Below, piece by piece: positions 3,247 through 39,463 of a stretch of DNA of 64,000 nt. Position numbers and translations under genes: made by a program. The DNA comes from Acidimicrobiaceae bacterium (GTDB lineage Bacteria > Actinomycetota > Acidimicrobiia > Acidimicrobiales > Aldehydirespiratoraceae), in assembly GCA_009842325.1 (NCBI GenBank), contig VYFQ01000014.1, forward strand, positions 194,026 through 258,025, in the 5' to 3' direction. The notes below the pieces were generated by a model. The model had not been told where the DNA came from. It worked only from the letters and a program-made list of their open reading frames with translations, and made no database searches. Position 1 is the first letter of the stretch. Each line of letters opens with the position of its first letter.

Positions 3247-4407
3247 CTAGGAGAGCGTCGGCATGCAGAGGCCGTCGAGTTCGCCGACCTGGATGCGGTC
3301 CCGGTTGTCGTAGGTGACCTCGTTGGAGGGGTCGGGCCGCAGCTTGAACTCGCGGAAGCTCATCTCCAGAGCGTCGAAGGCCACCAGGCGGCCCCGCAGC
3401 GAGTCCCCCACTCCCAGGATCAGCTTGATGGCCTCCAGGGCCTGCACGCTGCCGACGATGCCGGGCAGCACGCCCAGCACTCCGGCCTCGGCGCAGCTCG
3501 GCGCCATCTCCGGCGGAGGGGGCTCGGGCAGCATGTCGCGGTAGGTGGGCCCGTTGCGGGGGTCGAACACGGTGACCTGGCCCTCGAAGCGGAAGATCGA
3601 CCCGTGTACCACCGGTATGCCGAGCTTCACTGAGGCGTCGTTGAGCAGGTAGCGGCTCGGGAAGTTGTCGGCCCCGTCGACCACCACGTCGTAGCCGTCG
3701 AGGATCTCCATGACGTTGTCGGCGCCGAGCCGGGCGTCGTAGGTGACGACGTTGACGTCGGGGTTCAGCGCGGTGAGGGTCTTCTTGGCCGAGTCGACCT
3801 TGCGGTCGCCCACCCGGTCGACGTTGTGCAGGACCTGGCGCTGGAGGTTGGACTCGTCGACCACGTCCATGTCGATGATGCCGATGGTGCCCACTCCCGC
3901 GGCCGCGAGGTACAGCGCCGCCGGGGAGCCGAGACCTCCCGCGCCGAGCAGCAGGACCTTGGCGTCGAGCAGCTTGAGCTGCCCGTCCTCGCCCACCTCG
4001 GGCACCAGCAGGTGGCGCTGGTAGCGGTTGCGCTGATCGGGCGACAGGGTGCGGGGCCGCGCCCAGGCCCGGCCCTCGTCCTTCCACTTGTTGAAGCCGC
4101 CGTCCATGGACACCACGTCGGTGTAGCCCATCTGCTCGAGCGTCACCGCCGCGAAGGCGGAGCGCACGCCGCCCGCGCACATGGCCACCAGCGGGGTGGA
4201 CCGGTCGGACACGCGGTTCTCGATGCTCGACTCGAGCTGGCCCCGCGGGATGTGCACGGAGCCGGCGATGGCTCCCTGCTCGTACTCGTCGGGCTCGCGC
4301 ACGTCGAGCAGGGTCCAGCCCTCGCTCAGCAGCTGCTCGCCGCCGGCGGTGTCGACCTCGCGGATCTCGGCCTTGGCCTGCTGCAATAGTTCTCTGAAGC
4401 TCGCCAT
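3247..4407 (-). CDS. Rhodanese-ThiF/MoeB-family adenylyltransferase/sulfurtransferase (MoeZ-like, but with the rhodanese domain N-terminal)
   Basis: N-terminal rhodanese motif LLDVREPDEYEQGAIAGSVHIPRG. ThiF Rossmann motif LLLGAGGLGSPAALYLAAAGVGTIGIIDMDVVDESNLQRQ. Start placed at ATG 4407, because 4414-4437 belongs to the noncoding repeat; alternative start at 4437. Confidence 0.8.
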   Translation of the reverse strand: MASFRELLQQAKAEIREVDTAGGEQLLSEGWTLLDVREPDEYEQGAIAGSVHIPRGQLESSIENRVSDRSTPLVAMCAGGVRSAFAAVTLEQMGYTDVVSMDGGFNKWKDEGRAWARPRTLSPDQRNRYQRHLLVPEVGEDGQLKLLDAKVLLLGAGGLGSPAALYLAAAGVGTIGIIDMDVVDESNLQRQVLHNVDRVGDRKVDSAKKTLTALNPDVNVVTYDARLGADNVMEILDGYDVVVDGADNFPSRYLLNDASVKLGIPVVHGSIFRFEGQVTVFDPRNGPTYRDMLPEPPPPEMAPSCAEAGVLGVLPGIVGSVQALEAIKLILGVGDSLRGRLVAFDALEMSFREFKLRPDPSNEVTYDNRDRIQVGELDGLCMPTLS

Positions 4408-4413
4408 CGGTCG

Positions 4414-4473
4414 TTCGCTCCTGTTCGCTTCGCTCACGGGCCGCTCGGGCCACGGCCTCGCAAGCTCGGCCTC
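4414..4473. repeat. Copy 2 of the ~60 nt intergenic repeat
   Basis: Near-identical to 3134-3195. It lies immediately upstream of the rhodanese-ThiF start. Confidence 0.85.
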
Positions 4474-7210: not shown

Positions 7211-7320
7211 GCGGCTGCGACTCTCGCGCGGCGTTCTAGCCGGACCCCCTGAACGACAAGGCCAGCTCGACCAGGGTGCGCACGCCAAAGCCGGTACCGC
7301 CCTTGGAGATCTCGCCATCG
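7178..7320. repeat. Left direct repeat of the islet: the true 3' end of the kinase gene plus a decayed 3' remnant of pepA
   Basis: 7184-7210 matches 11254-11280, with one mismatch seen. 7254-7320 matches 11314-11380, with 5 mismatches in 67 nt by my count. On the minus strand 7254-7320 translates to DGEISKGGTGFGVRTLVELAL, which is the pepA C-terminus. Confidence 0.8.
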
Positions 7321-7400
7321 AGGGAATCCATGTGACACCGGTGATGCAAGGGTGATACTCTTTAGGCAGCCGGGTGAGCGACAATCGAGGAGAGTTGACC

Positions 7401-7667
7401 ATGAGTCAAACACCCGATGCTCCGGCTGCCTGGCCTGCCGAGCACAGCGAGACTAGCAGTTGGCTGATGCGCCTAGTCATGACCGAGAGATTCCAGATCA
7501 TCAACGCGATTGCGGCCGTGCCCCTCGTGGCGGTCTGCATCGCGATGCTGAACGGCAACTATCACCCTGTCGCCGTCGCCGTATTGTCGTGGCCGCTGTT
7601 GATTCCGATATGGGTCTTCGGCAGAAAACTCACCGGCAGGCCCGTCGTACGGACTCGCTCGCAATAA
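7401..7667 (+). CDS. Small two-helix membrane protein
   Basis: GAGGAG Shine-Dalgarno at 7387-7392, about 8 nt before ATG 7401. Hydrophobic segments IINAIAAVPLVAVCIAML and VAVAVLSWPLLIPIWVF. Confidence 0.4.
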   Translation: MSQTPDAPAAWPAEHSETSSWLMRLVMTERFQIINAIAAVPLVAVCIAMLNGNYHPVAVAVLSWPLLIPIWVFGRKLTGRPVVRTRSQ

Positions 7668-7890
7668 TCAGGTCGACTCGGCTGTTGAGAAGTTGCTCGT
7701 CGACGGCGGGGTGATCTGTGTCACCGGATTCGTGTGCAGCATTGTGCGCTTCAATGGCTGATCCCCAGACGTTTTCGGCGCGGGCCTGACCAACTGCTGC
7801 GGCGCGACAGTCCGATGACGAAGCGCCGCAGCCAGCCAGCACCAACAACAGGACTGCCCCCGGCACGGCAAGGTACCTACGTGTCGTCAA
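7630..7890 (-). CDS. Possible small lipoprotein
   Basis: TTG start gives (M)TTRRYLAVPGAVLLLVLAGCGASS, with lipobox LAGC. Short, and the start is uncertain. Confidence 0.3.
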   Translation of the reverse strand: MTTRRYLAVPGAVLLLVLAGCGASSSDCRAAAVGQARAENVWGSAIEAHNAAHESGDTDHPAVDEQLLNSRVDLIIASESVRRACR

Positions 7891-7974
7891 TAGTAGGGGT
7901 GGTTGGGCGGGGCCATTCCACGCCGGGTAAGCGTTCCGGTTGGCCCCGCCCAACGCTCCTTTTGAGCAGGGCAT

Positions 7975-8379
7975 CTAGCTGTGCGCCCAGCGCAGAACCT
8001 GTTCGCAGGCGACGTACGTGCCGCCAGCCGCGACCCCGCCAGCCACGGGGTTTCCTCCAGTCGCACCGGTCGCCGCCGATGCCGCGACCGTTGCGACGGT
8101 CGTGCATACGACGACGTGGTACCAGTGGCCGTGTGGAATGCCGCAGACCTGTGTCCACACCGGCCCATATATCGGTCGGCTGTAGTCGGGCCGCACGCCG
8201 GAATCTTGCGGGCCGCTGGGGGCGACCTGCGTAGTGTGGTAGCCAACTACGCCTTGGACGTAGCGGCCCTCACACTTGGTGTGAGCGGAGGCGGGTTCGG
8301 GGTCTACGGCAGCGTCCACGACGAGGCCAGCACCGGCCAGCGTCAACACCACTAGAAGGGCCAAGGTGACACGCAACAT
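7975..8379 (-). CDS. Secreted or membrane-anchored Cys-containing protein with a Gly/Ala-rich C-terminal hydrophobic region
   Basis: Signal peptide MLRVTLALLVVLTLAGAGLVV...ASA. Four Cys. C-terminus is TTVATVAASAATGATGGNPVAGGVAAGG. AT-rich upstream region. Confidence 0.45.
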   Translation of the reverse strand: MLRVTLALLVVLTLAGAGLVVDAAVDPEPASAHTKCEGRYVQGVVGYHTTQVAPSGPQDSGVRPDYSRPIYGPVWTQVCGIPHGHWYHVVVCTTVATVAASAATGATGGNPVAGGVAAGGTYVACEQVLRWAHS

Positions 8380-8521
8380 CAGTTCTGTGACTTTCTGCTT
8401 GCCGCTCACCCGGCGTCTGAAATAACTGTATAGCAAGAAATAAAGGAACCTGTCAACTCTTCATGACATTTTTGATCGAATGACTACGAATTGCTGAGCC
8501 AAGCTCCCTAGCGGGCATCAA

Positions 8522-8680
8522 GACGGACGGGTCGTGCTGCTCAACTTCCAGGTCATCGGCCAGTCCCATGCCGGTGGGCGACCTGGCCTACTTCGTCACC
8601 GGGAGCCTCTCCCCCGCCACCGCCTCGGAGATCGAGCAGTCGCTCTACGACGCTGACTCAGCGCCCTCGCATCGGAGGGC
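8522..8680 (+). pseudogene. Decayed internal fragment of the phosphotransferase gene
   Basis: Aligns to 6864-7022 with substitutions and a frame-disturbing indel (cagtcccatgccggtg versus cagtccatgcccgtg). The 84-aa track ORF 8568-8822 reads through it. Confidence 0.7.
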
Positions 8681-8818
8681 GACGCGCTCAGCCATGCGCC
8701 TCTCAGCCAAGAAGGGAGACGATCGGGCCGACCGTATCGTGGCGGAAGCCAACGCTACTGAGCTAGCTGGCGAGCTGAGGACCATGCTGACGTCCTGCGG
8801 TCGCACCGCCTTCAGCTG

Positions 8819-9859
8819 CTAGAGGACACCCTCACGAGCCAAGAGGCGAGTCTTCATGACACTGCCATAGCCCCACTTGCCGACATCCTGGGTCTTTCGG
8901 AATGTCTCATGGACAACGCGGTGGCAGGGAACCAGCAGCGGTACAGGGTTCCGTCTCATCGCTTCGCTCACCGGTCTGTATGCGTTGGGGCGTCCGATCA
9001 CCCGCGCAACATCTTTGTAGGTCCTCACTTCTCCACGAGGAATGCGAGTGGTGGCCAACAGAGCGTCCCTGTGGACCGGTGCGCTCGCTAGCGACGAGAG
9101 ATCGATTGGCACATCAGTGCGCCCTGCCTCTAACGCCGCTTGCACCTTCTTGACCAGCTTCGGATCGCGGTCGGGATCCGGTCCAACTTCCACATCAACG
9201 CCGATTTCATCACGCAGAAGGGCGACGAACCCGTTGGGATCCATGACTCCCCATTTGGATGCGCTCAGACCTGACTCGGGATCGCAGGCGAGGTCTCCAT
9301 CCTGTGCGACCCGCAAGGCTGAGACCCTCCCGCTGTGGTGGGCCACGAAGACGGACCCAAGAGGACTGTCCACCGCGAACCAGGCGTGGACCGGCACATG
9401 AACGCCCGTGCGACTGCCGCGCGAGCCATGCGGCAAGCGCATCGCCTTGTGGGCGCCGGAAGGGTCGGCCCTGGCAGTCTCGTTCCCGGCGGCGTTGAAC
9501 TCTCTCAGTAGGTGCTTGGCTTTGTCCGTCTCCATCGCGTCCACAGCCTCAAGCAGCTTGACTACGCCACCGATTACGATCGCAACATCGTGACGCTCAA
9601 TGCGCTCGTGGTGTGCCCATCGATGGCGCTCTTCTCGAAGTGTTCCCACTAGCTTCCTGATGACGCCGCGATCTGAAGTCGGGAACTGGCCACCGACCTG
9701 TTCCCAACGCTCGTCAATCACTCGCAACAAGTAGCTGGGATCGCCTGTGGAGTCCGCGCCCGCTGAGGTCATCGGCGTGTGACGTTGGACGAAGGGCTTG
9801 AGTCCTCTTGCCAGCAACTGTAAGGCCTCATCCACCCAGGTCCGGTTGCTCACATTCAC
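8819..9859 (-). CDS. Fusion protein: N-terminal Swt1-like HEPN domain plus a complete Ogt/MGMT-type methylated-DNA-protein-cysteine methyltransferase
   Basis: N-terminus has LLRVIDERWEQV...LREERHRWAHH (Rx4H) ...LLEAVDA. C-terminus has IPRGEVRTYKDVARVIGRPNAYRPVSEAMRRNPVPLLVPCHRVV (PCHR active site). The middle region resembles the Ogt N-terminal domain. Confidence 0.65.
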   Translation of the reverse strand: MNVSNRTWVDEALQLLARGLKPFVQRHTPMTSAGADSTGDPSYLLRVIDERWEQVGGQFPTSDRGVIRKLVGTLREERHRWAHHERIERHDVAIVIGGVVKLLEAVDAMETDKAKHLLREFNAAGNETARADPSGAHKAMRLPHGSRGSRTGVHVPVHAWFAVDSPLGSVFVAHHSGRVSALRVAQDGDLACDPESGLSASKWGVMDPNGFVALLRDEIGVDVEVGPDPDRDPKLVKKVQAALEAGRTDVPIDLSSLASAPVHRDALLATTRIPRGEVRTYKDVARVIGRPNAYRPVSEAMRRNPVPLLVPCHRVVHETFRKTQDVGKWGYGSVMKTRLLAREGVL

Positions 9860-9941
9860 CGTTCAGACTCCTCTCGTGGCGACCGCCGACTGGAACCCTA
9901 GGCGTCGACCATGACGCGAGGCTCTAGGACAGACCCACAAG

Positions 9942-10505
9942 ATGCAGTCGCCGTTGGCGAGCAACAGCAAGAAGCTGAACGCCGGAAGGGGTCCGGTCGG
10001 CAAGACCGCCGTCGTCGGTGCCCGCGACCGGGCGACGGGCCACGTCGCGGCTCAGGTCATCGACTCGGTGGACGCCGAAACGCTGCAAGGGTTCGTCACC
10101 GACCGCACCGCGGAGGGTGCCCGCGTGTTCACCGACGGTGAAGCCGCCTATCGGGGCCTGCCCCGCCGTTCTTCGGTGTCGCATTCGACCGGCGAGTACG
10201 TCCGCCGGGAGGGCAAGGTCAAGGTCCACACCAACGAGATCGAGTCGCTGTGGTCCACGCTGAAGCGGGCGCACAAGGGCGTCTACTACCGCCTGTCCGC
10301 CAAGCACCTACAGCGCTATGTGGACTCGTTCGCTGCGAAGCGCAACATCCGCGACGCGGACACCATCGACCAGATGGCCGCGGTGGTGGCGTCGATGTTC
10401 GGCCGGGAGATCACCTACGACAAGCTGATCGCCGGGGATCGAGGCTTGGCCGTGGATGAGTTCCTCACGTTGGTAGGGGGTAGAAAATATACAACCGCAT
10501 CCTGA
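9942..10505 (+). mobile_element. N-terminally truncated IS1595-family (ISXO2-like DDE) transposase remnant
   Basis: SKKLNAGRGPVGKTAVVGARDRATGHVAAQVI...TLQGFV...HTNEIESLWSTLKRAHKGVYYRLSAKHLQRYVDSFAAKRN. The zinc-ribbon N-terminus and the first part of the DDE domain are missing. Confidence 0.7.
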
Positions 10506-10517
10506 TACGGAGGACAG

Positions 10518-11147
10518 ATGACCACTAAGGCGCAGCGCCGCCAGCGAGATCGTCTCCTGGATCAGCAGAATGGTCTGTGCGGGATCTGTTGGCTCCCCAT
10601 TAGCGACCAGGCCAAGGCAAGCAAGAACTACGAAAGAGAGCACATTCTGCCGAAGGTCTGGTATCGCGATTTGAGCATGGAAGGCAAGGACGACGTGTCC
10701 AATCTGCAAGCAGCGCACAAGGCATGCGGACAGATGAAAGATCGGGAGTGGCTGCCCTGGAACAGACATCTATTGGCCGCCGTGACGAGTTTTGGAGAGA
10801 TGCCCGGACCAGATACCTCAGCTTCTTTGATCCCATACTTGGCCGTATATCGCAGCGAGCAGTACCTGATATCGCCTCCGACAATGGAAGATCCCGGGTT
10901 CCGCCAATGGCTCGACACTGAACCGCGAAGGTCGTGGCGCACAAACTCCTACCGCGCCTGGAACGACCAGGCTGAGTTCATGTACAGAAGGGCTATAGAT
11001 CATTATGTAGCTCGACAGCCCGTGCATGACCTCACCGGCATCCAGCCCATGTCTTGGGAAACGTGGGAAGCCACCGTGGAGTTGTCGCCCGGACTTGATG
11101 GATTTGTGATGAGTCGCATCCCCGGAACCACCAGGAAGGGACCATGA
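10518..11147 (+). CDS. HNH endonuclease-domain protein
   Basis: CGICWLPI...EREHILPK...NLQAAHKACGQMK. GGAGGA Shine-Dalgarno before ATG 10518. Visibly lower G+C than its surroundings. Confidence 0.65.
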   Translation: MTTKAQRRQRDRLLDQQNGLCGICWLPISDQAKASKNYEREHILPKVWYRDLSMEGKDDVSNLQAAHKACGQMKDREWLPWNRHLLAAVTSFGEMPGPDTSASLIPYLAVYRSEQYLISPPTMEDPGFRQWLDTEPRRSWRTNSYRAWNDQAEFMYRRAIDHYVARQPVHDLTGIQPMSWETWEATVELSPGLDGFVMSRIPGTTRKGP

Positions 11148-11260
11148 AGGTTGAGCAGCGCAGCGTGCCTGTCCGCGATCTCGTGGACGGCTACAGCGAT
11201 GACGGTGCTGGGGGCGTGGTCGGCTACGGTCGCCTACTGGATATCCGTCCGCCGAGCTGA
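11144..11260 (+). pseudogene. 38-codon stump of a gene truncated at the islet/repeat junction (N-terminus resembles ParB/DUF262-type nuclease-associated proteins)
   Basis: ATGA overlap with the HNH stop. MKVEQRSVPVRDLVDGYSDDGAGGVVGYGRLLDIRPPS then stops inside the right direct repeat. Family assignment is from memory only. Confidence 0.3.
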
Positions 11261-11380
11261 GCCTGACTGACCTGCTCTGAGTCCCGCCCTTTGGCTCAGT
11301 TGCTCGAGGTGTACGACAAAGCGAGCTCGACCAGGGTGCGCACGCCGAAGCCGGTGCCGCCCTTGGAGATCTCGCCGTCG
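11248..11380. repeat. Right direct repeat of the islet: remnant of the kinase 3' end plus the true pepA 3' end
   Basis: See 7178-7320. 11254-11280 encodes ELSLTDLL-stop, which is the kinase C-terminus. Confidence 0.8.
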
Positions 11381-12762
11381 TCCGACTCGGCCCGGGCCGG
11401 ACCGGCGATGTCGAGGTGGGCCCAGGGGATGCCGTCGGCCACGAACTGCTGCAGGATCAACCCCGCGGTCAGAGCGCCCCCGTGGGTGCCGCCGATGTTC
11501 TTCATGTCGGCCACGTTCGACTCGAACTGCTTGGCGTAGTCGGCGGGCAGCGGCAGCGGCCACACCCGCTCCCCGGCGCGGTCCGCGGCGGCGCGGATCT
11601 CATCGATCAGCGGCTCGTCGTTCCCCATCAACCCCGCGATGGAGGGACCCAGCGCCACCATGCAGGCGCCGGTGAGGGTGGCCAGGTCGACGATGGCGTC
11701 GGGTTCGTCCTCGCAGGCCAGCGACAGGGCGTCGGCCAGGATCAGCCGGCCCTCGGCATCGGTGTTGAGCACCTCGATGGTCTTGCCGTTGCGGATGGTG
11801 AGAACGTCGCCGGGCCGGGTGGCGTCGCCGCCGAGCATGTTGTCGGTCATGGGCAGGTACCCCTTGACCCGGACGGGCGCGCCGACCGCGGGCAGCACCG
11901 ACATGGCCCCGATGATCGCCGCGGCCCCGCACATGTCCATCTTCATGGCCATCATTCCCTGGGCGGTCTTGATGGACAGGCCTCCGGCGTCGAACGTGAT
12001 CCCCTTGCCCACGTAGGCCAGCGTCGCGGCGGGGTCGTCCGCGGGCTCGTAGGTCAACTCCACGTAGCGCGGCGGATGGGTGCTGCCCCGGTTGACGCCG
12101 AGCAGGCCGCCGAGCCGCTGCTTCTTGATCTCCGCCTCGTTCCAGACCCTCGACTTCAGTCCGGCCTTGCGGGCGACGGCCGCAGCCTTGCGGGCGAAGG
12201 CCGGGGCAGTGAGCGAGCCGCCGGGCTCGTTGGACAGGTCGCGGGCCACGCACACCCCCGCGGCGATGGTGGAGCCCCGGGCCAGGGCGTTCTTGGCCGC
12301 GGCCGATGTGCTTCCCACCACGTCGACCCTGGCCAGCTTGGGAGCGCCGTTGCCGCCGCTGGAGCCGTCGGCGGACGACTTGTAGACGGTGTAGCGGTAG
12401 CCGCCCAGGATCACGCCCTCGGCGAGCGCCTGACGGGCGGCGTCGTCGTCCAAGTCGGAATCGGCGGGAAGCCGCACCGCTGCCCGTGCGTGACGCGAGC
12501 ACGAGCGAGCCAGCGCCGCGCCGGCTCGCCGGACGGTGGCCGCGGTGACTTCGGCAGCCGGGCCGACGCCGACCAGCCCGGCGAAGCCGCCGCCGGCCGG
12601 CTGCAGATGGACCTGCTCCGCCTTGCCCCTGAACCCGGTGGTGTCCAAGACCGCCGCGTCGAAACCGTCTATGCCAGCTTCGACATCCTCGGCGGTGACA
12701 AGAGAAACACTGGCGGTGGCCGCCTTGGGCACGGAGCGAACTGCATGGACTGTGATCGGCAT
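11296..12762 (-). CDS. pepA: Leucyl aminopeptidase (M17)
   Basis: NTDAEGRLILADAL, VGKGITFDAGGLSIK, DMCGAAA. Confidence 0.9.
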   Translation of the reverse strand: MPITVHAVRSVPKAATASVSLVTAEDVEAGIDGFDAAVLDTTGFRGKAEQVHLQPAGGGFAGLVGVGPAAEVTAATVRRAGAALARSCSRHARAAVRLPADSDLDDDAARQALAEGVILGGYRYTVYKSSADGSSGGNGAPKLARVDVVGSTSAAAKNALARGSTIAAGVCVARDLSNEPGGSLTAPAFARKAAAVARKAGLKSRVWNEAEIKKQRLGGLLGVNRGSTHPPRYVELTYEPADDPAATLAYVGKGITFDAGGLSIKTAQGMMAMKMDMCGAAAIIGAMSVLPAVGAPVRVKGYLPMTDNMLGGDATRPGDVLTIRNGKTIEVLNTDAEGRLILADALSLACEDEPDAIVDLATLTGACMVALGPSIAGLMGNDEPLIDEIRAAADRAGERVWPLPLPADYAKQFESNVADMKNIGGTHGGALTAGLILQQFVADGIPWAHLDIAGPARAESDDGEISKGGTGFGVRTLVELALSYTSSN

Positions 12763-12787
12763 CCGGTCAGACTAATGGGCTGCCCGA

Positions 12788-13699
12788 CTAGCCCGATGCT
12801 GGGGCGGGGAGGTCCTGCTCGACGGTGAGCGTCGGCGCGAACAGGTCCCCGAGTTGTTCAACCCGGTCGAGGACTTCGGAGGCGGTGAACGACAGCGGCT
12901 CGCCGTCGGCCCCGTCGGACACCTCGTCCCAGGTGATGGGCGCGGACACGGTGGGACGGTCCAGGCCCCTCAGCGAGTAGGGGGCGATGGTGGTCTTGAA
13001 GCGGGCGTTCTGGCTCCAGTCGATGAACACCTTCTGTGGCCGCAGGCTGCGCTTCATCACCGACACCACCAGTGCCGGCAGTCGCTTCTCGAGCAGCTGG
13101 GCCACGGCCAGGGCGAAGCCGGCCGCGTGGTCGTGGGAGTGGGGCCGGTTGAGGGGCACGTAGAGCTGCATCCCCTTGCTGCCCGAGGTCTTCGGCCATC
13201 CGGACAGGCCGACCGACTCCAGAACCTCGCAGACATGCAGGGCCACTTGGCAGCACTCGACGATCGTGGCCGGCTTGCCCGGGTCGAGGTCGAACACGAC
13301 CATGGTGGGCGAGTCGAGGTCGCCGCAGCGGGCCATCGGGGCGTGGATCTCCAGCGCGGCCAGGTTGGCCGACCAGGCCAGCGCGGCCACGGAGTCGAGG
13401 CGGCAATATTCGATCGGCCCGCCCCTGTCGCCCGGACCACGGCACGTGGGAACCCAGTCGGGACGGTGCTTCGGGCAGCGCTTCTCGAAGAACGATTCGG
13501 CGGTCACGCCGTCGGGCCAGCGCCGCAGGGTGACACCCCGGTCGCCGACGTGGGGAAGCATCGCCGGCGCGACCCGCACGTAGTAGTCGATCACCTGCGC
13601 TTTGGTGAACCCGGTCAGCGGGTACATGACCTTGTCGAGGTTGCTGACCGACAGCCGGCGCCCATCGATGGTGACGGGCACGCGCTCGGGTGCGCTCAC
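12788..13699 (-). CDS. NHEJ DNA polymerase/primase domain protein (LigD-Pol, stand-alone)
   Basis: VTIDGRRLSVSNLDKVMYP..GFTKAQVIDYY...RWPDGV...FFEKR. GTG start at 13699, downstream of the Ku stop. The longer track ORF overlaps Ku. Confidence 0.8.
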   Translation of the reverse strand: MSAPERVPVTIDGRRLSVSNLDKVMYPLTGFTKAQVIDYYVRVAPAMLPHVGDRGVTLRRWPDGVTAESFFEKRCPKHRPDWVPTCRGPGDRGGPIEYCRLDSVAALAWSANLAALEIHAPMARCGDLDSPTMVVFDLDPGKPATIVECCQVALHVCEVLESVGLSGWPKTSGSKGMQLYVPLNRPHSHDHAAGFALAVAQLLEKRLPALVVSVMKRSLRPQKVFIDWSQNARFKTTIAPYSLRGLDRPTVSAPITWDEVSDGADGEPLSFTASEVLDRVEQLGDLFAPTLTVEQDLPAPASG

Positions 13700-13736: not shown

Positions 13737-14612
13737 TCAGGCCGACTTGCGGATCTTCGTCGCCGGTTCCTCGGGCTTCGCCTCCGGCTCCGCGGCGGCC
13801 TCGCCCCCGGTGGGGTGGCGCTTGCGGGCCTCCTTGGCCGCGGCGACCGAGGCCTCCAGCGCGGCCATGAGATCGACAACGGTGTCGGACGCCGGTGCGG
13901 CCGGCGCCACCGTGGCCGTGGTGTCGCCGGAGGCCTTGCGCTCGATGAGCTCCAGCACCGCCTCCCGGTAGGAGTCGGTGTAGCGGTCGGGCTCGAATTC
14001 GGCCTCGAGGGCGGCGATGAGCTGGCGGGCCATGGCCGTCTCCCGCTCGTCCACGTCAATGCCGTCCAGCCCTTCGAAGCCGTCGATGTCGTCCGGCGCC
14101 ACCAGCTCGTCGGAGTACACCATGGTCGACAGCATCAGCCGCCCGTCGACGGGACGGACGGCGGCCAGGTACTGCTTCGAGCGCATCACGAAGTGGCAGA
14201 CGGCCACCTTGTCGGCCTCGTCCATGGCCTCGGCCAGCAGCTTGTAGGGCTTGGCCGCGGCCTCGTCGGGAACCAGGTGGTAGGCGCTGTCGTAGAAGAC
14301 GGGATCGATGTCGGCTAGGTCGATGAAGGCGTCGATGTCGATGGTGCGGGCCGCGACCGGGGCCAGCTCCTCCAGCTCGCGGTCGGTGACGGTGACATAG
14401 TCGCCCGACGCCAGCTCGTAGCCCTTGATGATCCGCTCGGGCGGCAACTCGGTGTCGTCGGCCGACGACACCTTCTTGTAGCGCACCCGGGCGCCGGTCT
14501 CGGCGTCGAGCTGGTTGAAGCGCACGTTCTTGCGGCTCACCGCGCTGAAGAGCTGCACGGGAATCGTGACCAGTCCGAAGCTGATCGATCCCTTCCAGAT
14601 CACTCTCGGCAC
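13737..14612 (-). CDS. ku: Ku protein (non-homologous end joining)
   Basis: MPRVIWKGSISFGLVTIPVQLFSA...VRFNQL, with a basic C-terminal tail. Confidence 0.9.
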   Translation of the reverse strand: MPRVIWKGSISFGLVTIPVQLFSAVSRKNVRFNQLDAETGARVRYKKVSSADDTELPPERIIKGYELASGDYVTVTDRELEELAPVAARTIDIDAFIDLADIDPVFYDSAYHLVPDEAAAKPYKLLAEAMDEADKVAVCHFVMRSKQYLAAVRPVDGRLMLSTMVYSDELVAPDDIDGFEGLDGIDVDERETAMARQLIAALEAEFEPDRYTDSYREAVLELIERKASGDTTATVAPAAPASDTVVDLMAALEASVAAAKEARKRHPTGGEAAAEPEAKPEEPATKIRKSA

Positions 14613-16675: not shown

Positions 16676-18409
16676 CTAGGTTCGTGCCGGGGCGGCCTCC
16701 ACGGCGGCGTCGGCGGCCTGGCGGGCGTGGTAGCTGGAACGGGTCAGGGGCGAGGCCTCTACATGGCGGATGCCCATCGACTCGCCGATCTCCTTCCATC
16801 GCTCGAACGCCTCCGGCGGCCACCAGCGATCAACCGGAAGATGGCGTGCGCTGGGACGCAGGTACTGGCCGATGGTCACGATTTCGGTTCCGGCTGCATG
16901 CAGGTCCGCCAGGGTCTGGACCACCTCGTCGTGGGTCTCGCCCATGCCCGCGATGATTGACGACTTGGTGGTCAGTCCCTCCGCCTTCGCCCTGGCCAAC
17001 ACCGCCAGGCTGCGGGCATAGCCGGCTGACGGGCGTACCGCTCGCTGGAGCCGGGCAACGGTCTCGATGTTGTGGTTGAGCACGTCGGGACGTGCATCGA
17101 ACACCGTCTGGAGGGCGGCCGCTTCACCACCGAGGTCGCTTATCAGCGTCTCGACACGGGCCGCAGGCAGGCGATGCCGGACCGCGGCCACCGTGTCGGC
17201 CACGACGGTTGCTCCCCCGTCGGCCAGATCATCGCGGGCCACCATGGTCACCACCACGTGCTCGAGGCCCATCCGGACGGCCGCCTCAGCCACCCGCTCC
17301 GGCTCCTCCGAGTCCACCGGACCGGGGCGGCGGGTGTCGACCAGGCAGAAACCGCAGGCCCGGGTGCAGCGCTCGCCGAGAATCATGAAGGTCGCGGTGC
17401 CGTCGTTCCAGCACTCGGAGATGTTGGGGCAGCCGGCCTCCTCGCAGACGGTCACCAGGTCGAGACCACGCAGCGTCGAGCGGACCTCGTGGAACGTCGG
17501 CCCGGTGCTGAGCGGCACCCGCATCCATTCCGGCTTGCGTGACCGCAGCGGCACCGGCTCGTGGCTCTCGCCGTCCAGCCGGGCAGCCTCCAGCCGGCCC
17601 AGCAGGCGCAGCGACACTCCCTCGGCCGCGGCTCCGGCCTCGGGGCTGCCGTCCGTCGCCGTTTCGGCATCCGCCGAGCCGTTCGCCGCGTCCCGGGTGA
17701 ACCGGGCCATGTCCGCAGGAGCCACCCGGTGGGCGACATCGGCCCGGTCGATGCGGCCGTGCGCGCCCCATGTCCCAGCAGCCCGTTGCGCCACGAGGTC
17801 CACGACCTGTTGCATCGACACGCCGATGCCCTCGGCCGCCAACGATGTCACTCCCAGGCCGGTGATCCCGCAGGGCACGATCCGAGCGAACCACTCCAGG
17901 TCGGGATCGACGTTGAGCGCGAAGCCGTGCATGGAGCGGGCCCGCGACAGCCTCACGCCGATGGCGGCAATCTTCCGGGGCCGCAGCCCCTCGGGGTCGA
18001 CCCACACCCCGGTGTGACGCTCGAGACGTCCCGCCTCGAGCCCCAGATCGGCTAGGACGTCGATCAACAGCTGCTCCACGCCGCTCACGTAAGCGGCGGT
18101 GTCCGCCATCCCGCCGCCGCGCCGGCCGGGCACGGTGAGAATCGGATAGCCCACCAGTTGCCCGGGTCCGTGGTAGGTGACCTCGCCGCCCCGGTCGGTC
18201 TCCACCACCGAGCCGCCCAGCGCCTCGACGTCGACCAGCAGGTGCTCGCGCCGGCCCCGGCGGCCCAGGGTCACCACATGGGGATGCTCGAGCAGGAGAA
18301 GGTGGTCGTCGGAGGAGTGGCCGTGAAGGCGGCGTTGGAGTGCCAGGGCATCGTCGTAGGCCACACGGCCGAGCCAGCGGATCCGCAGGACGGGCCGGTC
18401 AGTGGCCAC
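16676..18409 (-). CDS. Fused octanoyltransferase LipB (N-terminal) and lipoyl synthase LipA (C-terminal)
   Basis: N-terminus is LLLLEHPHVVTLGRRG...KIAAIGVR. An Ala/Gly/Glu-rich linker follows. C-terminus has CEEAGCPNISECW and the radical-SAM motif CTRACGFC. There is no stop codon between the two halves. Confidence 0.8.
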   Translation of the reverse strand: MATDRPVLRIRWLGRVAYDDALALQRRLHGHSSDDHLLLLEHPHVVTLGRRGRREHLLVDVEALGGSVVETDRGGEVTYHGPGQLVGYPILTVPGRRGGGMADTAAYVSGVEQLLIDVLADLGLEAGRLERHTGVWVDPEGLRPRKIAAIGVRLSRARSMHGFALNVDPDLEWFARIVPCGITGLGVTSLAAEGIGVSMQQVVDLVAQRAAGTWGAHGRIDRADVAHRVAPADMARFTRDAANGSADAETATDGSPEAGAAAEGVSLRLLGRLEAARLDGESHEPVPLRSRKPEWMRVPLSTGPTFHEVRSTLRGLDLVTVCEEAGCPNISECWNDGTATFMILGERCTRACGFCLVDTRRPGPVDSEEPERVAEAAVRMGLEHVVVTMVARDDLADGGATVVADTVAAVRHRLPAARVETLISDLGGEAAALQTVFDARPDVLNHNIETVARLQRAVRPSAGYARSLAVLARAKAEGLTTKSSIIAGMGETHDEVVQTLADLHAAGTEIVTIGQYLRPSARHLPVDRWWPPEAFERWKEIGESMGIRHVEASPLTRSSYHARQAADAAVEAAPART

Positions 18410-26047: not shown

Positions 26048-26634
26048 AGCAGGTCGGGACGGGCACTCTGGCGGTCACGGGCGACGACGCTGCTGACCGC
26101 CTGCTCAACACCGATCCCCTGGCTCTGCTCTTGGGGATGCTGCTCGACCAGCAGATCCCCCTGGAGTGGGCCTTCATGGGGCCTCATCGCCTGGTCGAGC
26201 GGCTGGGTGCCGAACTGGACGCGGTGGACATCTCCGAGCGGGACCCCGACGAGTTTTCCGCCCTGGTCAGGGCTAAGCCGGCGCTGCACCGGTTTCCGAG
26301 CTCGATGGCCAAACGGATGCAGGCCCTATGCCGGCATGTCGCTGATCACTACGACGGCGACGCCGGGGCGGTCTGGAACGCGGCGGCGAGCGGCGAGGAT
26401 CTCTTCCGGCGATTGCGGGACCTGCCCGGCTACGGCGACGAGAAGGCTCGGATCCTGACCGCCGTCCTCGCCAAGCGCTTCGGCGTCCGTCCCGACGGCT
26501 GGGAGGCGCAGGCCGGAGCCTTCGCCGACGGCGAGCCGCGATCGGTAGCCGACATCGACAGCCCGGAAGCGCTACAACGTGTGCGGGCATGGAAGAAAGA
26601 GCAGAAGGCCCTTGGCAAGAGGAAGGACGAATGA
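26044..26634 (+). CDS. HhH-GPD-type base-excision-repair-like protein
   Basis: The GTG at 26044 overlaps the aceE stop. LLGMLLDQQIPLEWAF...LPGYGDEKARIL. Confidence 0.55.
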   Translation: MKQVGTGTLAVTGDDAADRLLNTDPLALLLGMLLDQQIPLEWAFMGPHRLVERLGAELDAVDISERDPDEFSALVRAKPALHRFPSSMAKRMQALCRHVADHYDGDAGAVWNAAASGEDLFRRLRDLPGYGDEKARILTAVLAKRFGVRPDGWEAQAGAFADGEPRSVADIDSPEALQRVRAWKKEQKALGKRKDE

Positions 26635-27182
26635 GAGTCCGACTCCTGGCGTGCGCTGTGATCGTTGCCCTTACGGTCGCGGCCTGCGGGGCCGATGACG
26701 TCGCGACCAATGCGGAACCAGCTTCCACGGGGACCGACGTCGCGGCTTCCGATGCCCCCGCCAACCCCTCGGGAGATGTGCCCGACCTCGAAATGGTCAG
26801 CGTGTACACGGGGGAGACCGTCAATCTCCAGTCGCTGGTGAGCGGCGAGACGCCGCTGCTGCTCTGGTTCTGGGCGCCTCATTGACCCACCTGCCGGAGA
26901 GAGGCTCCGGCCCTTGAGCAGTTCGCTCAAGACAACACCGGCAAGGTGACGGTCGTGGGGATAGGCGCCCAGGACGACTTCGCCTACGCCGAGCGATTCG
27001 TGTCCCAGACCGGAACCACCTTCCCCATGCTGTGGAGCGACTCCAACGAGAGTTGGCGCCACTTCGATGTCGGTAGGAACTCGAGCGTGCTGCTGCTCGA
27101 CAGCGGTGGCAACCTGGCCGACGACAGCCCCGGCAGCTTCGACGCAGCGAGCCTCAGCGACCAGCTTGCTGCCCTAACCTGA
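26631..27182 (+). CDS. Lipoprotein TlpA/ResA-like thiol:disulfide oxidoreductase with in-frame UGA (candidate selenocysteine, residue 85) in an H-U-P-T-C motif
   Basis: ATGA overlap with the upstream stop. Signal peptide with lipobox VAAC. LLWFWAPH-TGA(26883-26885)-PTCRREAPALEQF...VTVVGIGAQ...TFPMLWSD...VLLLDSGG continues in the same frame. Hairpin lies 7 nt after the TGA. Confidence 0.7.
26893..26911 (+). promoter_or_regulatory. Candidate bacterial SECIS hairpin 1
   Basis: GCCGGAG-AGAGG-CTCCGGC: 7 bp stem, G-containing loop, starting 7 nt 3' of the UGA. Confidence 0.55.
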
Positions 27183-27185
27183 GCG

Positions 27186-28385
27186 ATGAAGATGCCGCTC
27201 TCCACCCGAATTCTCGCAGTGTTCCTCGCCATCGCCCTGCCGGCCGCCGCCTGCGGCAGTGATGCCGACCCGAGTACCGGGGATCAAGGCATCAACGCCA
27301 GCGCCGAGGATCAGGCCGCTCTTGAGCAGGCCCATGCCGAGGCCGACGCGGCTGCGGCTGAGGCCGCCGAAGCCGCCGCCGCAGAGGCAGCGGCCCAGGC
27401 AGAAGCGGAAGCCGCCGCCCAGGCAGCCGCTGAAGCCGAAGCCGCCGCTCAAGCCGAGGCTGCCGCTCAAGCCGCGGCTCAAGCGGAGGCCGAAGCCGCG
27501 GCCGCCAAGGCGGCTGAGGCCGAACTCGCGCTGGCGGCTGCTGAAGCGGAGCCTGAGGGAACTGTGGACCCCGAAGTGGTCGACGAACTCGAGCAGCAGC
27601 TGGCGCAAGCCCAAGCCGAGGCCGAGGCAGCCGAGGCCGAGGCGGCCGCACAGGCAGCCGCCGCCGAGGCAGCCGCACAGGCAGCCGCCGCTGAGGCCGA
27701 AGCAGCCGCGGAAGCCGCAATCGCCGAGGCCGAAGCCCGAGCCATAGCCGCCGAGGCCGAGGCCCTAGCCGAAGCCGCGGAAGCCGAGGCAGCGGCCCAA
27801 ACTGCAGCCGCCGAGGCCGCAGCCCAAGCGGCAGCCGAGGCCACCACGACAGCCGCACCAACGACAACCGCCGCGCCCACAACCACCGCAGCCCCGACGA
27901 CAACTGCCGCGCCCACAACCACCGCAGCCCCGACCACGACAGCCGCACCGACGACCACCGCCGCGCCGGTCATCGAGATCGAGGTGCCGGCTCAGGACAT
28001 GATCGAAGTGCGCACGGGAGCGGCCGTCAACCTTCGCGACTTCGCGGACGGATCGACACCCCTGCTGCTCTGGTTCTGGGCCCCGCATTGACCGATCTGT
28101 CGGCGAGAGGCCTCGCCGGTCGGGCAGTTCGCCCGAGACAACGAAGGTAAAGTCATCGTCATAGGCGTGGGCGGCTCGGACACCCGCGCCGAGGCCGAGA
28201 GTTTTGTGGCCTCCGCCGGCGGTCCGGACAACATGCTCTGGGGCAGCTCCTTCGAGGCGTGGAACCACTATCGCGCCGGCAACCCCAACCTGATACTGCT
28301 CGACGCGACCGGTGCAACACAGATCGAGAAGGTCAGCCAATTCAACAAGAACCGCCTCCAGGACGCACTGGACAGCCTCGGCTAG
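27186..28385 (+). CDS. Second lipoprotein TlpA-like oxidoreductase paralog with in-frame UGA (candidate Sec, residue 302) in H-U-P-I-C, preceded by a long low-complexity linker
   Basis: Lipobox AAAC. Roughly 200 aa Ala/Glu/Gln-rich stretch, then 7 x TTTAAP. LLWFWAPH-TGA(28089-28091)-PICRREASPVGQF...VIVIGVGG...LILLDATG continues in frame to 28385. Confidence 0.7.
27843..27968. repeat. 18 bp tandem repeat x 7 encoding (TTTAAP)7
   Basis: The direct translation gives seven consecutive TTTAAP units. The copies differ at synonymous positions. Confidence 0.85.
28101..28118 (+). promoter_or_regulatory. Candidate bacterial SECIS hairpin 2
   Basis: CGGCGAG-AGGC-CTCGCCG: 7 bp stem starting 9 nt 3' of the UGA. 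The stem sequence differs from hairpin 1 but pairing is preserved. Confidence 0.55.
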
Positions 28386-37460: not shown

Positions 37461-38215
<755 letters not shown>

Positions 38216-38219
<4 letters not shown>

Positions 38220-39463
38220 GCAACGGCGGCAGAGACCGGTTCGCAGCCGCGACGAAGGCGCAGTTCCCGCTACTGGAGCGTCAGGTCCACGGCCGGCCCA
38301 TCGTCTACCTGGACTCGGCCGCTTCGTCGCAGAAGCCCCGCTGCGTGCTGGACGCCATGAACAGCTACTACGAGACGATCAACGCCAACGTCCACCGGGG
38401 AGCCTACGAGATCGCGGCCCAGGCCACCGAGGCCATGGAGGCGGCCCGAGCGGGGGTCGCCCGGTTCGTGAACGCGCCGTCCGCCGACGAGATCGTCTTC
38501 ACCAAGAACGTCACGGAGGCCATCAACCTCGTGGCCCGTTCGTGGGGCGGGGCCAACCTCGGGCCGGGTGACGCCGTGGTGATCACCGAGATGGAGCACC
38601 ACGCCAACATCGTTCCCTGGCACATCATGGCGGCGGAGAAGGGTTTCGAGCTCCGCTGGATCGGCGTCGAAGCCGACGGCCAGCTCGATCTCGCCAACCT
38701 GGACCGGCTCCTCGACGGGGCCAAGCTCCTGGGCGTGACCGCCATGAGCAACGTGCTGGGAACGCTCAACCCGATCCGCCGGCTGGCCGACGCCGCCCAT
38801 GACGCCGGAGCGCTGATGCTGGTGGACGCGGCCCAGTACGTGCCCCACCTTCCGACCGACGTGCAGGCTCTGGGGGCCGACTTTCTGGGTTTCACCGGCC
38901 ACAAGATGTGCGGACCGACCGGCATCGGGGTGTTGTGGGCCCGAGCCGAGTTGCTGGAGGCGATGCCGCCGTTCCTCGGCGGCGGCGAGATGATCCTGGA
39001 CGTGCGCAAGGACGGCTTCCTGCCGAACCACATCCCCCACAAGTTCGAGGCCGGAACCCCGCCAATCGCCGAGATCGTCGGGCTCGGTGCCGCGGTCCAG
39101 TACCTCGACGGCCTGGGAATGGACCGGGTGCGCGAGCACGAGGTCAGCCTCACGGCCTACGCGCTGCGCACGCTCGAGGAGCGCTACGGCTCCCAGCTCG
39201 CGGTGCACGGCCCGTCCGAACCGGCCTGCCGGGGCGGCGTGCTGTCGATGAGCTTCCGGGACATCCACCCCCACGACCTGTCGCAGGTGCTGGACGACCG
39301 CGGCGTGTGCGTGCGGGCCGGCCATCACTGCGCCAAGCCGCTGATGCGGCACCTCGGGGTGCCGGCCACGACCCGGGCGTCGCTCTACGTGTACAACGAC
39401 ACGTCTGACGTGGACGCCCTGGCCGACGCGCTCGGCGTCGCCGGCGAGTTCTTCGCCAGGTAG
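38216..39463 (+). CDS. sufS: Cysteine desulfurase, SufS type
   Basis: ATGA overlap with sufC. VYLDSAASSQKP, INANVHRG, GHKMCGPTGIG, RAGHHCAKPL. Confidence 0.9.

Follow-up and report, generated by a model that had tools for sequence, protein, structure and literature searches.

Two tandem TlpA-like lipoprotein genes of an Acidimicrobiaceae bacterium carry TGA at the catalytic cysteine position and are probable extracytoplasmic selenoprotein genes

Can a stop codon that falls exactly on the catalytic cysteine (Cys) of a thioredoxin-fold protein be read as an amino acid? This question is raised by a locus of an Acidimicrobiaceae bacterium (assembly GCA_009842325.1), which we analyzed within a stretch of 64,000 nucleotides (contig VYFQ01000014.1, positions 194,026 to 258,025 of the forward strand), referred to in the following as the window. 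It carries two neighboring genes for TlpA/DsbE-like lipoproteins, here called gene A and gene B, each of which is interrupted by an in-frame TGA at the first position of its C-x-x-C motif (Table 1). We consider it highly likely from the comparative evidence that both are genuine, conserved tandem selenoprotein genes with selenocysteine (Sec, U) at the N-terminal, nucleophilic position of this motif (U-P-x-C). The original prediction, namely that gene A encodes a TlpA-like lipoprotein with a TGA-encoded Sec in place of the nucleophilic Cys, is directly supported by the alignment of the TGA with Cys in homologues, the recurrence of the TGA at 15 sites, a conserved downstream frame under purifying selection, a hairpin specific to the Sec forms, the assignment to the redoxin family, and the sequences of signal peptide and lipobox.

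In gene A, the open reading frames (ORFs) 26589-26885 and 26946-27182 share one frame and are separated by the TGA at 26883-26885; as had been proposed, reading through this codon yields a single protein of 183 amino acids (aa). The probable start is the ATG at 26631, which overlaps the stop codon of the upstream HhH-GPD-like gene in an ATGA and lies 4 nucleotides (nt) downstream of GGAAGGA. The N-terminus MRVRLLACAVIVALTVAAC contains the lipobox VAAC, recognized by eye in agreement with the lipoprotein signal noted earlier, and signal peptide and lipobox are kept in the orthologue P0005 (locus L004). The original prediction concerned gene A: This gene is indeed real, but it forms only one half of a conserved tandem pair whose other half, gene B, had been overlooked. 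Gene B begins with MKMPLSTRILAVFLAIALPAAAC, in which we read the lipobox as PAAAC, continues with an Ala/Glu-rich spacer of about 240 residues, the final part of which consists of seven TTTAAP repeats, and ends with a domain that is 47% identical to that of gene A. The N-terminal fragment of gene B ranges from 206 to 332 aa among its orthologues. In public gene calls, gene A appears as pieces of 84 aa and 75 aa (VXTL01000027.1 of GCA_009837475.1, an Acidimicrobiaceae metagenome-assembled genome, MAG) and gene B as pieces of 299 aa and 72 aa. Within the gene B spacer, NCBI calls an antisense ORF of 144 aa (window 27174-27614, - strand; 13890-14324 in locus L073) in place of gene B; this ORF is a low-complexity artefact.

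The product of gene A is recognized by the Pfam models Redoxin (PF08534; 52.7 bits, cutoff 26.6) and AhpC-TSA (46.2 bits) and also by Thioredoxin_8 and Thioredoxin, while that of gene B reaches a borderline score with AhpC-TSA (25.8 bits, cutoff 26). The best matches of A in the PDB, extending over about 110 residues, are DsbF (3ios, E=1e-13) and DsbE/MPT53 (1lu4, E=3e-12) from M. tuberculosis, followed by thioredoxins, StoA, ResA and CcmG. The active-site context is WFWAPH-TGA-PTC-RREAP in gene A and WFWAPH-TGA-PIC-RREAS in gene B, and the W-x-x-C-x-x-C-x-x-E-x-P signature of the family accordingly reads WAPH-U-PTC-RRE-A-P and WAPH-U-PIC-RRE-A-S, respectively, if the TGA is translated as Sec. 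A search against NCBIfam left the DsbE, ResA and TlpA equivalogs far under their cutoffs (38 vs 123 bits and similar). None of its selenoprotein models matches A or B, NF047660 ('HUIPC motif thioredoxin-like selenoprotein') included, and the sole selenoprotein-related match is SelL_rel_redox at E=0.036 (13.7 bits vs a cutoff of 120). Taken by their sequences, the proteins A and B are predicted to be lipid-anchored extracytoplasmic thioredoxin-fold oxidoreductases of the TlpA/DsbE-like redoxin family.

The exchange of Cys for TGA is evident from the homologues. Genome and metagenome scans yielded 68 loci from Acidimicrobiia, Sporichthyaceae, Nanopelagicales, Microthrixaceae and Paraconexibacter MAGs, corresponding to 58 non-redundant sites, which constitute a Cys-only control set and no census, given that the scan pattern contained Cys at the Sec position. 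In these 58 homologues a Cys codon (55 TGC, 3 TGT) aligns with the TGA within the context WAPH-C-xx-C, just as the original prediction had anticipated, and the database Cys forms show WAPH-C-PxC at the aligned position. The Sec forms comprise 15 sites, which are those of A and B, both in the window and in four relatives, one site each in L001 (JGI metagenome) and L004 (Tara), and three tandem paralogs in L003, the latter three loci being more distant. At all 15 sites the codon is TGA and never TAA or TAG, and the sites represent at least eight distinct genomic contexts, independent assemblies or paralogs. Both TGAs with identical flanks are found in six independent assemblies of the same species, so that sequencing errors can be dismissed as their origin. 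In the four relatives, with an identity of 68-86% in the gene A fragment, both genes are TGA-interrupted at the same codon within the syntenic arrangement aceE / HhH-GPD / A / B / pstSCAB-phoU, and the contigs reach 4.18 Mb (ERZ25074053:ctg471327, carrying both genes). Another 53 protein clusters represent C-terminal pieces of this gene, for the most part 75-78 aa long, that stem from split calls.

The three paralogs of L003 (1116-4130; TGA at 1374, 2518 and 3780, each followed by the second of the hairpins described below) are joined at their N-termini to SLH domains or to Thr/Pro-rich regions, which corresponds to a different cell-surface anchoring of the domain.

Incorporation of Sec at UGA in bacteria depends on a selenocysteine insertion sequence (SECIS), for which the published bacterial consensus specifies a loop of 3-9 nt with a G among its first two positions that is followed by G/U, a stem of 4-16 bp, a spacing of 16-37 nt and a minimum free energy of at most -7.5 kcal/mol. 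Each TGA of the locus is followed by two adjacent hairpins. The original prediction had singled out the first of them, a 7 bp hairpin close to the TGA of gene A: It is present, but it does not discriminate between Sec and Cys forms, and the second hairpin is the better fit. Hairpin 1 is more stable in the Sec forms (-11.0 vs -7.0 kcal/mol in the Cys forms, p=0.015) and is common in the latter too; its covariation is weak, its register differs between A and B, and in gene A only 14 nt separate the UGA from its loop, which is below the consensus range. Hence, hairpin 1 was rejected as the SECIS and is possibly an accessory or spacing helix.

Hairpin 2, located at +31 to +49 from the U of UGA with the loop AGUUC, agrees with the consensus in all respects (minimum free energy -7.8 to -11.9 kcal/mol). 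Structures that conform to this generic consensus also follow 16% of the TGA triplets of the window and 4 of its 19 genuine terminator TGAs; they are unspecific in DNA of such high GC content (68.8% in the window), so that a hairpin alone is no evidence and the contrast between Sec and Cys forms has to carry the argument. This contrast is pronounced: Hairpin 2 occurs at 15 of 15 Sec sites compared with about one of 58 Cys forms, only one of which has the full stem, and the number of contiguous pairs is 6-7 in each of the first five Sec forms vs 0.76 on average in the 58 Cys forms (p=8e-5). When 13 Sec sites are aligned, 91% of the cells are paired vs 12-49% when the 3' arm is slid, the pair 33:47 being U-A in six and C-G in six, and the pair 35:45 being A-U, G-C or G-U. 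The stem moreover engages rare codons. The Ala codon in its 3' arm is GCT at 12 of the 13 sites, a codon that accounts for 7.7% of the Ala codons in the window and, among the Cys forms, for 1 of the 35 Ala codons found here, and the single GCC, in gene B, is compensated by a GAG to GGG change in the 5' arm; CTT, CAA and CGA, each making up 3-10% of its codon family, also take part in the stem. The exact core GRGCAGTTYGCYC stands 33 nt after every Sec TGA and was found nowhere else in 82 loci (~830 kb), apart from one Cys form with a broken stem, and near matches in other parts of the window fall within intact ORFs or on the non-coding strand. With its position inside the coding sequence downstream of UGA, its 5-nt loop with G-U at positions 2-3 and its stem of 6-7 bp, hairpin 2 resembles the bacterial SECIS of the E. 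coli fdhF type, from which it differs by a second stable hairpin ahead of it that fills the spacer and by the lack of the bulged U of fdhF. On these sequence comparisons, hairpin 2 (26913-26931 in gene A) is most probably the SECIS.

Several observations weigh against the assignment of A and B as selenoprotein genes. With regard to the RNA element, Rfam returned no SECIS family match at gathering or permissive thresholds, although this database represents bacterial SECIS elements poorly; the 15 Sec sites are mutually related and their covariation counts are thus not independent events; the switch between U-A and C-G mostly tracks the split between A and B; hairpin 2 overlaps the conserved peptide EQFA[QR], so that its conservation is partly at the protein level; and the distance of 34 nt between UGA and loop is close to the upper limit of the consensus. 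With regard to the decoding machinery, the window contains no tRNA gene of any kind and hence no tRNA-Sec, none of its 40 Pfam-annotated genes encodes SelA, SelB or SelD, and probes derived from the sel cluster of locus L083 matched neither the window nor any Sec-form locus. Likewise, no tRNA-Sec was found in the fetched Sec-form loci, and a SelB search with a query from the same class gave 5,075 matches, among the 120 listed of which the SelB of the source MAG does not appear. The matches listed do include many Acidimicrobiaceae and Ilumatobacteraceae MAGs, and L083, a SelB-bearing locus of the lineage with 69% GC, has the genes for tRNA-Sec (selC), SelA, SelB and SelD in a row. According to a 2026 preprint, selA/B/C/D are present in all Actinomarinales, another order of the Acidimicrobiia. 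The Sec trait is thus present in the class Acidimicrobiia and would, on our reading, extend to the source genome.

Some further features of these sel genes were noted. The compact selC-selA-selB-selD cluster of L083 occupies 8602-12790, and its SelB is annotated as a protein of 507 aa, with a winged-helix piece of 96 aa called separately. Many of the listed SelB calls from Acidimicrobiia measure only 280-520 aa despite long contigs, compared with a full length of ~570-630 aa, and P0099 combines SelA and SelB domains in one call. In L019, an Antarctic Acidimicrobiales MAG, a rough tblastn search with E. coli SelB and SelD gave a match, confirmed by ORF reading, to a selB fragment beside a Cys-form homologue: selB is divergent to the Cys-form tlpA-like gene and ccdA (3-893, - strand, and 1070-2707, + strand), an adjacency that may be coincidence or a leftover of linkage to the Sec machinery.

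The Sec machinery was found neither in the window nor in any Sec-form locus, which would be compatible with read-through without SelB, in which a near-cognate tRNA (Trp, Cys or Arg) decodes the UGA with low efficiency, aided by a weak UGA-C context and by the hairpins, and a mixture of truncated lipopeptide and full-length selenium-free protein is made. UGA-C is a leaky stop context, and a C follows the UGA at 14 of the 15 sites; stable hairpins likewise follow the codon. However, at 15 of 15 sites the stop coincides precisely with the catalytic Cys and with no other residue, a hallmark of Sec/Cys exchange, and the insertion of Trp or Arg at this site would destroy the redox motif. Moreover, the hairpin fits the SelB-type consensus including the G-U of the loop, and relatives possess full sel clusters. 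We therefore regard this explanation as improbable.

Still less probable is that the two genes are decaying, in which case the TGAs would be nonsense mutations and at most short N-terminal lipopeptides would be made. The annotation as separate hypothetical proteins and the loss of the cis-Pro in paralog A, to which we return below, are compatible with decay, as is the ratio of non-synonymous to synonymous substitution rates (dN/dS) of gene B, which is lower upstream of the TGA (0.07-0.17) than downstream of it (0.25-0.65). Yet all downstream values are below 1 (0.21-0.55 for gene A), indicating purifying selection on the frame behind the TGA; the length after the TGA is constant with 98 codons in A and 97 codons in B, neither frameshifts nor second stops occur, and the family motifs carry on past the TGA, all of which contradicts the notion of a non-conserved tail in relatives. 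In addition, the same codon is found at the same position of 15 genes in genomes that span 59-69% GC, the Sec-specific RNA structure is held by rare codons, and the synteny is kept even among relatives in which the identity of the gene A fragment falls to 68%.

Alternatively, the genes might be genuinely split, with an N-terminal piece and a separately started C-terminal piece (GTG 26946 in gene A) that associate as polypeptides. A GTG or ATG does follow each TGA and is used by gene callers, but the start positions of the fragment calls vary between assemblies, and the 20 codons from the TGA to the GTG are conserved as coding sequence and hold the resolving Cys and the C-x-x-E-x-P. Furthermore, the C-terminal piece has no signal peptide and could not reach the exported N-terminal piece, which leaves this arrangement scarcely credible. 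A change of the genetic code that makes TGA a sense codon throughout the genome, for which nothing speaks beyond the two in-frame TGAs themselves, is practically negligible and refuted by stop usage, as TGA closes more genes of the window than any other stop (17 of 32 well-supported genes, gene A among them), and a scan of the window uncovered no other convincing TGA-interrupted gene.

Having weighed these alternatives, we return to the reading of A and B as selenoproteins and to their relationship with the Cys forms. In a neighbor-joining tree, which was built on ~135 residues and is not robust, 11 of the 12 included Sec forms (A, B and L003) fall into one clade together with the single Cys form L005, and L001 adjoins L053, a Cys form in which hairpin 2 is largely preserved. 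Both Cys forms that lie closest to the Sec forms (L005 10109 and L053 3112) use the rare codon TGT, which hints, as far as such sequences can tell, at recent Sec/Cys interconversion in the form of Sec-to-Cys switches. L005 harbors a second paralog (10522-11182), the active-site region of which is hidden under a masked run of N.

For the expression and function of A and B we infer the following course. A ribosome that meets the UGA would be served by SelB, which carries Sec-tRNA(Sec) and would bind the stem-loop (6-7 bp, loop A-G-U-U-C) located 31-49 nt downstream, thereby delivering Sec at the UGA in place of termination; hairpin 1 may determine the distance or delay the ribosome. The complete protein would then be exported, lipidated at the lipobox Cys and kept on the outer face of the cytoplasmic membrane, from which the ~240-residue spacer of gene B, rich in Ala/Glu and Thr/Pro, would keep the catalytic domain away. 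In catalysis, the selenolate is expected to attack disulfides or oxidized sulfur in substrates, resulting in a selenenylsulfide with the resolving Cys.

A and B can be compared with several known systems. With TlpA, ResA, CcmG (DsbE) and StoA, the proteins share the thioredoxin fold, the C-x-x-C-x-x-E-x-P motif and the predicted membrane-tethered extracytoplasmic site, and the weak matches to hidden Markov models and PDB entries are consistent with this kinship. These proteins are partnered with CcdA or DsbD, whereas no ccdA-like gene was found near the Sec-form loci, and the NCBIfam equivalog scores mentioned above likewise set A and B apart. In contrast, a ccdA-like gene adjoins the Cys-form gene in 40 loci. 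The neighbors of the Sec genes in the window are those for pyruvate dehydrogenase, the DNA glycosylase-like gene and pstSCAB, with no context of cytochrome-c maturation. DsbF (Rv1677) and DsbE/MPT53 (Rv2878c) of M. tuberculosis resemble A and B in the active-site region WFW(A/T)PWCPxCxxEAP and are actinobacterial proteins that are secreted or lipid-anchored, but they contain Cys instead of Sec and keep the cis-Pro that is missing in paralog A. Despite their TlpA/CcmG-like fold, DsbF and DsbE act as oxidants in vitro.

The cis-Pro itself distinguishes the two paralogs: In paralog A (window 26775-27179 and the orthologues in L079-L082) it is replaced in 5 of 5 orthologues, which read NSS or NST vs QPT in the Cys forms, while paralog B retains it (NPN). 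Such a loss is unusual for a catalytic thioredoxin-fold protein, and from the sequence it may reflect altered substrate handling. With A lacking the cis-Pro and residing near the membrane and B possessing it on a stalk of ~240 residues, we also considered that the pair might form a redox module that is based on selenium, works independently of CcdA and sits at the surface of a monoderm actinobacterium, acting as a relay or in a peroxidase- or oxidase-like manner and not as classical TlpA/ResA reductases; we put this forward as a speculation that is on balance unlikely.

Table 1. Positions of genes A and B and of their sequence and RNA features within the window
Feature	Positions	Strand	Remarks
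Gene A	26631-27182	+	183 codons; TlpA/DsbE-like redoxin family lipoprotein; read through TGA 26883-26885
Gene A, signal peptide and lipobox	26631-26687	+	MRVRLLACAVIVALTVAAC; lipid-modified Cys19 at 26685-26687; read from sequence
Gene A, proposed Sec codon (TGA)	26883-26885	+	first position of U-P-T-C; TGA in every orthologue found
Gene A, hairpin 1	26893-26911	+	GCCGGAG-AGAGG-CTCCGGC; 7 bp, loop AGAGG
Gene A, hairpin 2	26913-26931	+	CUUGAGC-AGUUC-GCUCAAG; loop 26920-26924, 34 nt after UGA; best SECIS candidate
Gene A, end	27180-27182	+	genuine TGA stop
Gene B	27186-28385	+	399 codons; lipoprotein paralog with low-complexity spacer and C-terminal TlpA-like domain; read through TGA 28089-28091
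Gene B, signal peptide and lipobox	27186-27254	+	MKMPLSTRILAVFLAIALPAAAC; read from sequence
Gene B, spacer	27300-27968	+	Ala/Glu-rich repeats, then 7 x TTTAAP (27832-27968)
Gene B, proposed Sec codon (TGA)	28089-28091	+	first position of U-P-I-C
Gene B, hairpin 1	28101-28118	+	CGGCGAG-AGGC-CUCGCCG; 16 nt spacing
Gene B, hairpin 2	28120-28136	+	UCGGGC-AGUUC-GCCCGA; loop 28126-28130; best SECIS candidate
Gene B, end	28383-28385	+	TAG stop

Elsewhere in the window, a single ORF of 577 aa (16676-18409, - strand) beside the genes for pyruvate dehydrogenase E2 and E3 combines the lipoyl/octanoyl transferase catalytic domain LplA-B_cat with the lipoyl synthase domains LIAS_N and Radical_SAM and, judged by these domains, looks like a LipB-LipA fusion. 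A fragment of an IS1595-family (ISXO2-like) transposase lies at 9942-10505, and the ~2.5 kb next to it (~7300-9900), which contain no ORF with the strong signal in third-position GC content of the other genes, may be a degraded mobile element. A rhodanese-ThiF/MoeB fusion gene lies at 3247-4437 (- strand). MoeB is among the families with known Sec forms (2026 selenoproteome review); the ORF of the fusion gene is uninterrupted and it is thus presumably a Cys form. Finally, in the ORF of a SufS-type cysteine desulfurase (37847-39463, + strand), ~150 residues precede the Aminotran_5 domain, and the ORF overlaps an acyl-CoA dehydrogenase gene on the opposite strand; the true start probably lies downstream of the listed one.

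The Sargasso Sea metagenome yielded predicted 'thiol-disulfide isomerase-like' proteins with Sec (cd02966, UxxC) as early as 2005, predictions of TlpA-like UxxC proteins with Sec date from 2005 and 2008, and a 2026 review of prokaryotic selenoproteomes lists a 'Redoxin family protein' (PF08534, UxxC) as well as a UGC-type TlpA family. Since proteins of this type have been predicted since 2005, A and B add to a known kind and do not represent a new kind of system. With the published UxxC families they share the superfamily, the Sec at the nucleophilic position of U-x-x-C, the marine metagenomic origin and the widespread Cys homologues, a comparison based on the published descriptions of these families (representatives MGB1650493.1 and HEU0032618.1). 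Lipoprotein anchoring, a tandem pair, an actinobacterial host and a SECIS structure are not part of those descriptions. Specific to A and B are the Acidimicrobiaceae host, the anchoring as lipoproteins, the tandem arrangement of a stalked B and a cis-Pro-less A, the lack of a neighboring ccdA, a defined candidate SECIS behind a second hairpin, and the splitting of both genes in all public annotations examined.

What follows for the lineage is, first of all, the correction of a systematic annotation error, as both genes exist as 'hypothetical protein' fragments in every public assembly examined. A well-supported selenoprotein pair that is missed by the curated NCBIfam selenoprotein models is thereby added to the Acidimicrobiia, a class for which we found one preprint on Sec use, the one on the Actinomarinales. 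Hairpin 2 provides a concrete candidate SECIS for this lineage (core GAGCAGUUYGCUC, 34 nt after UGA), backed by covariation and codon bias, and could serve as a starting point for finding further selenoprotein genes in these genomes. The family also offers a natural set for comparing Sec with Cys, including the TGT-Cys forms that resemble recent conversions. If the surface redox module outlined above were true, A and B would mark a functional departure from the ccdA-linked Cys-form family.

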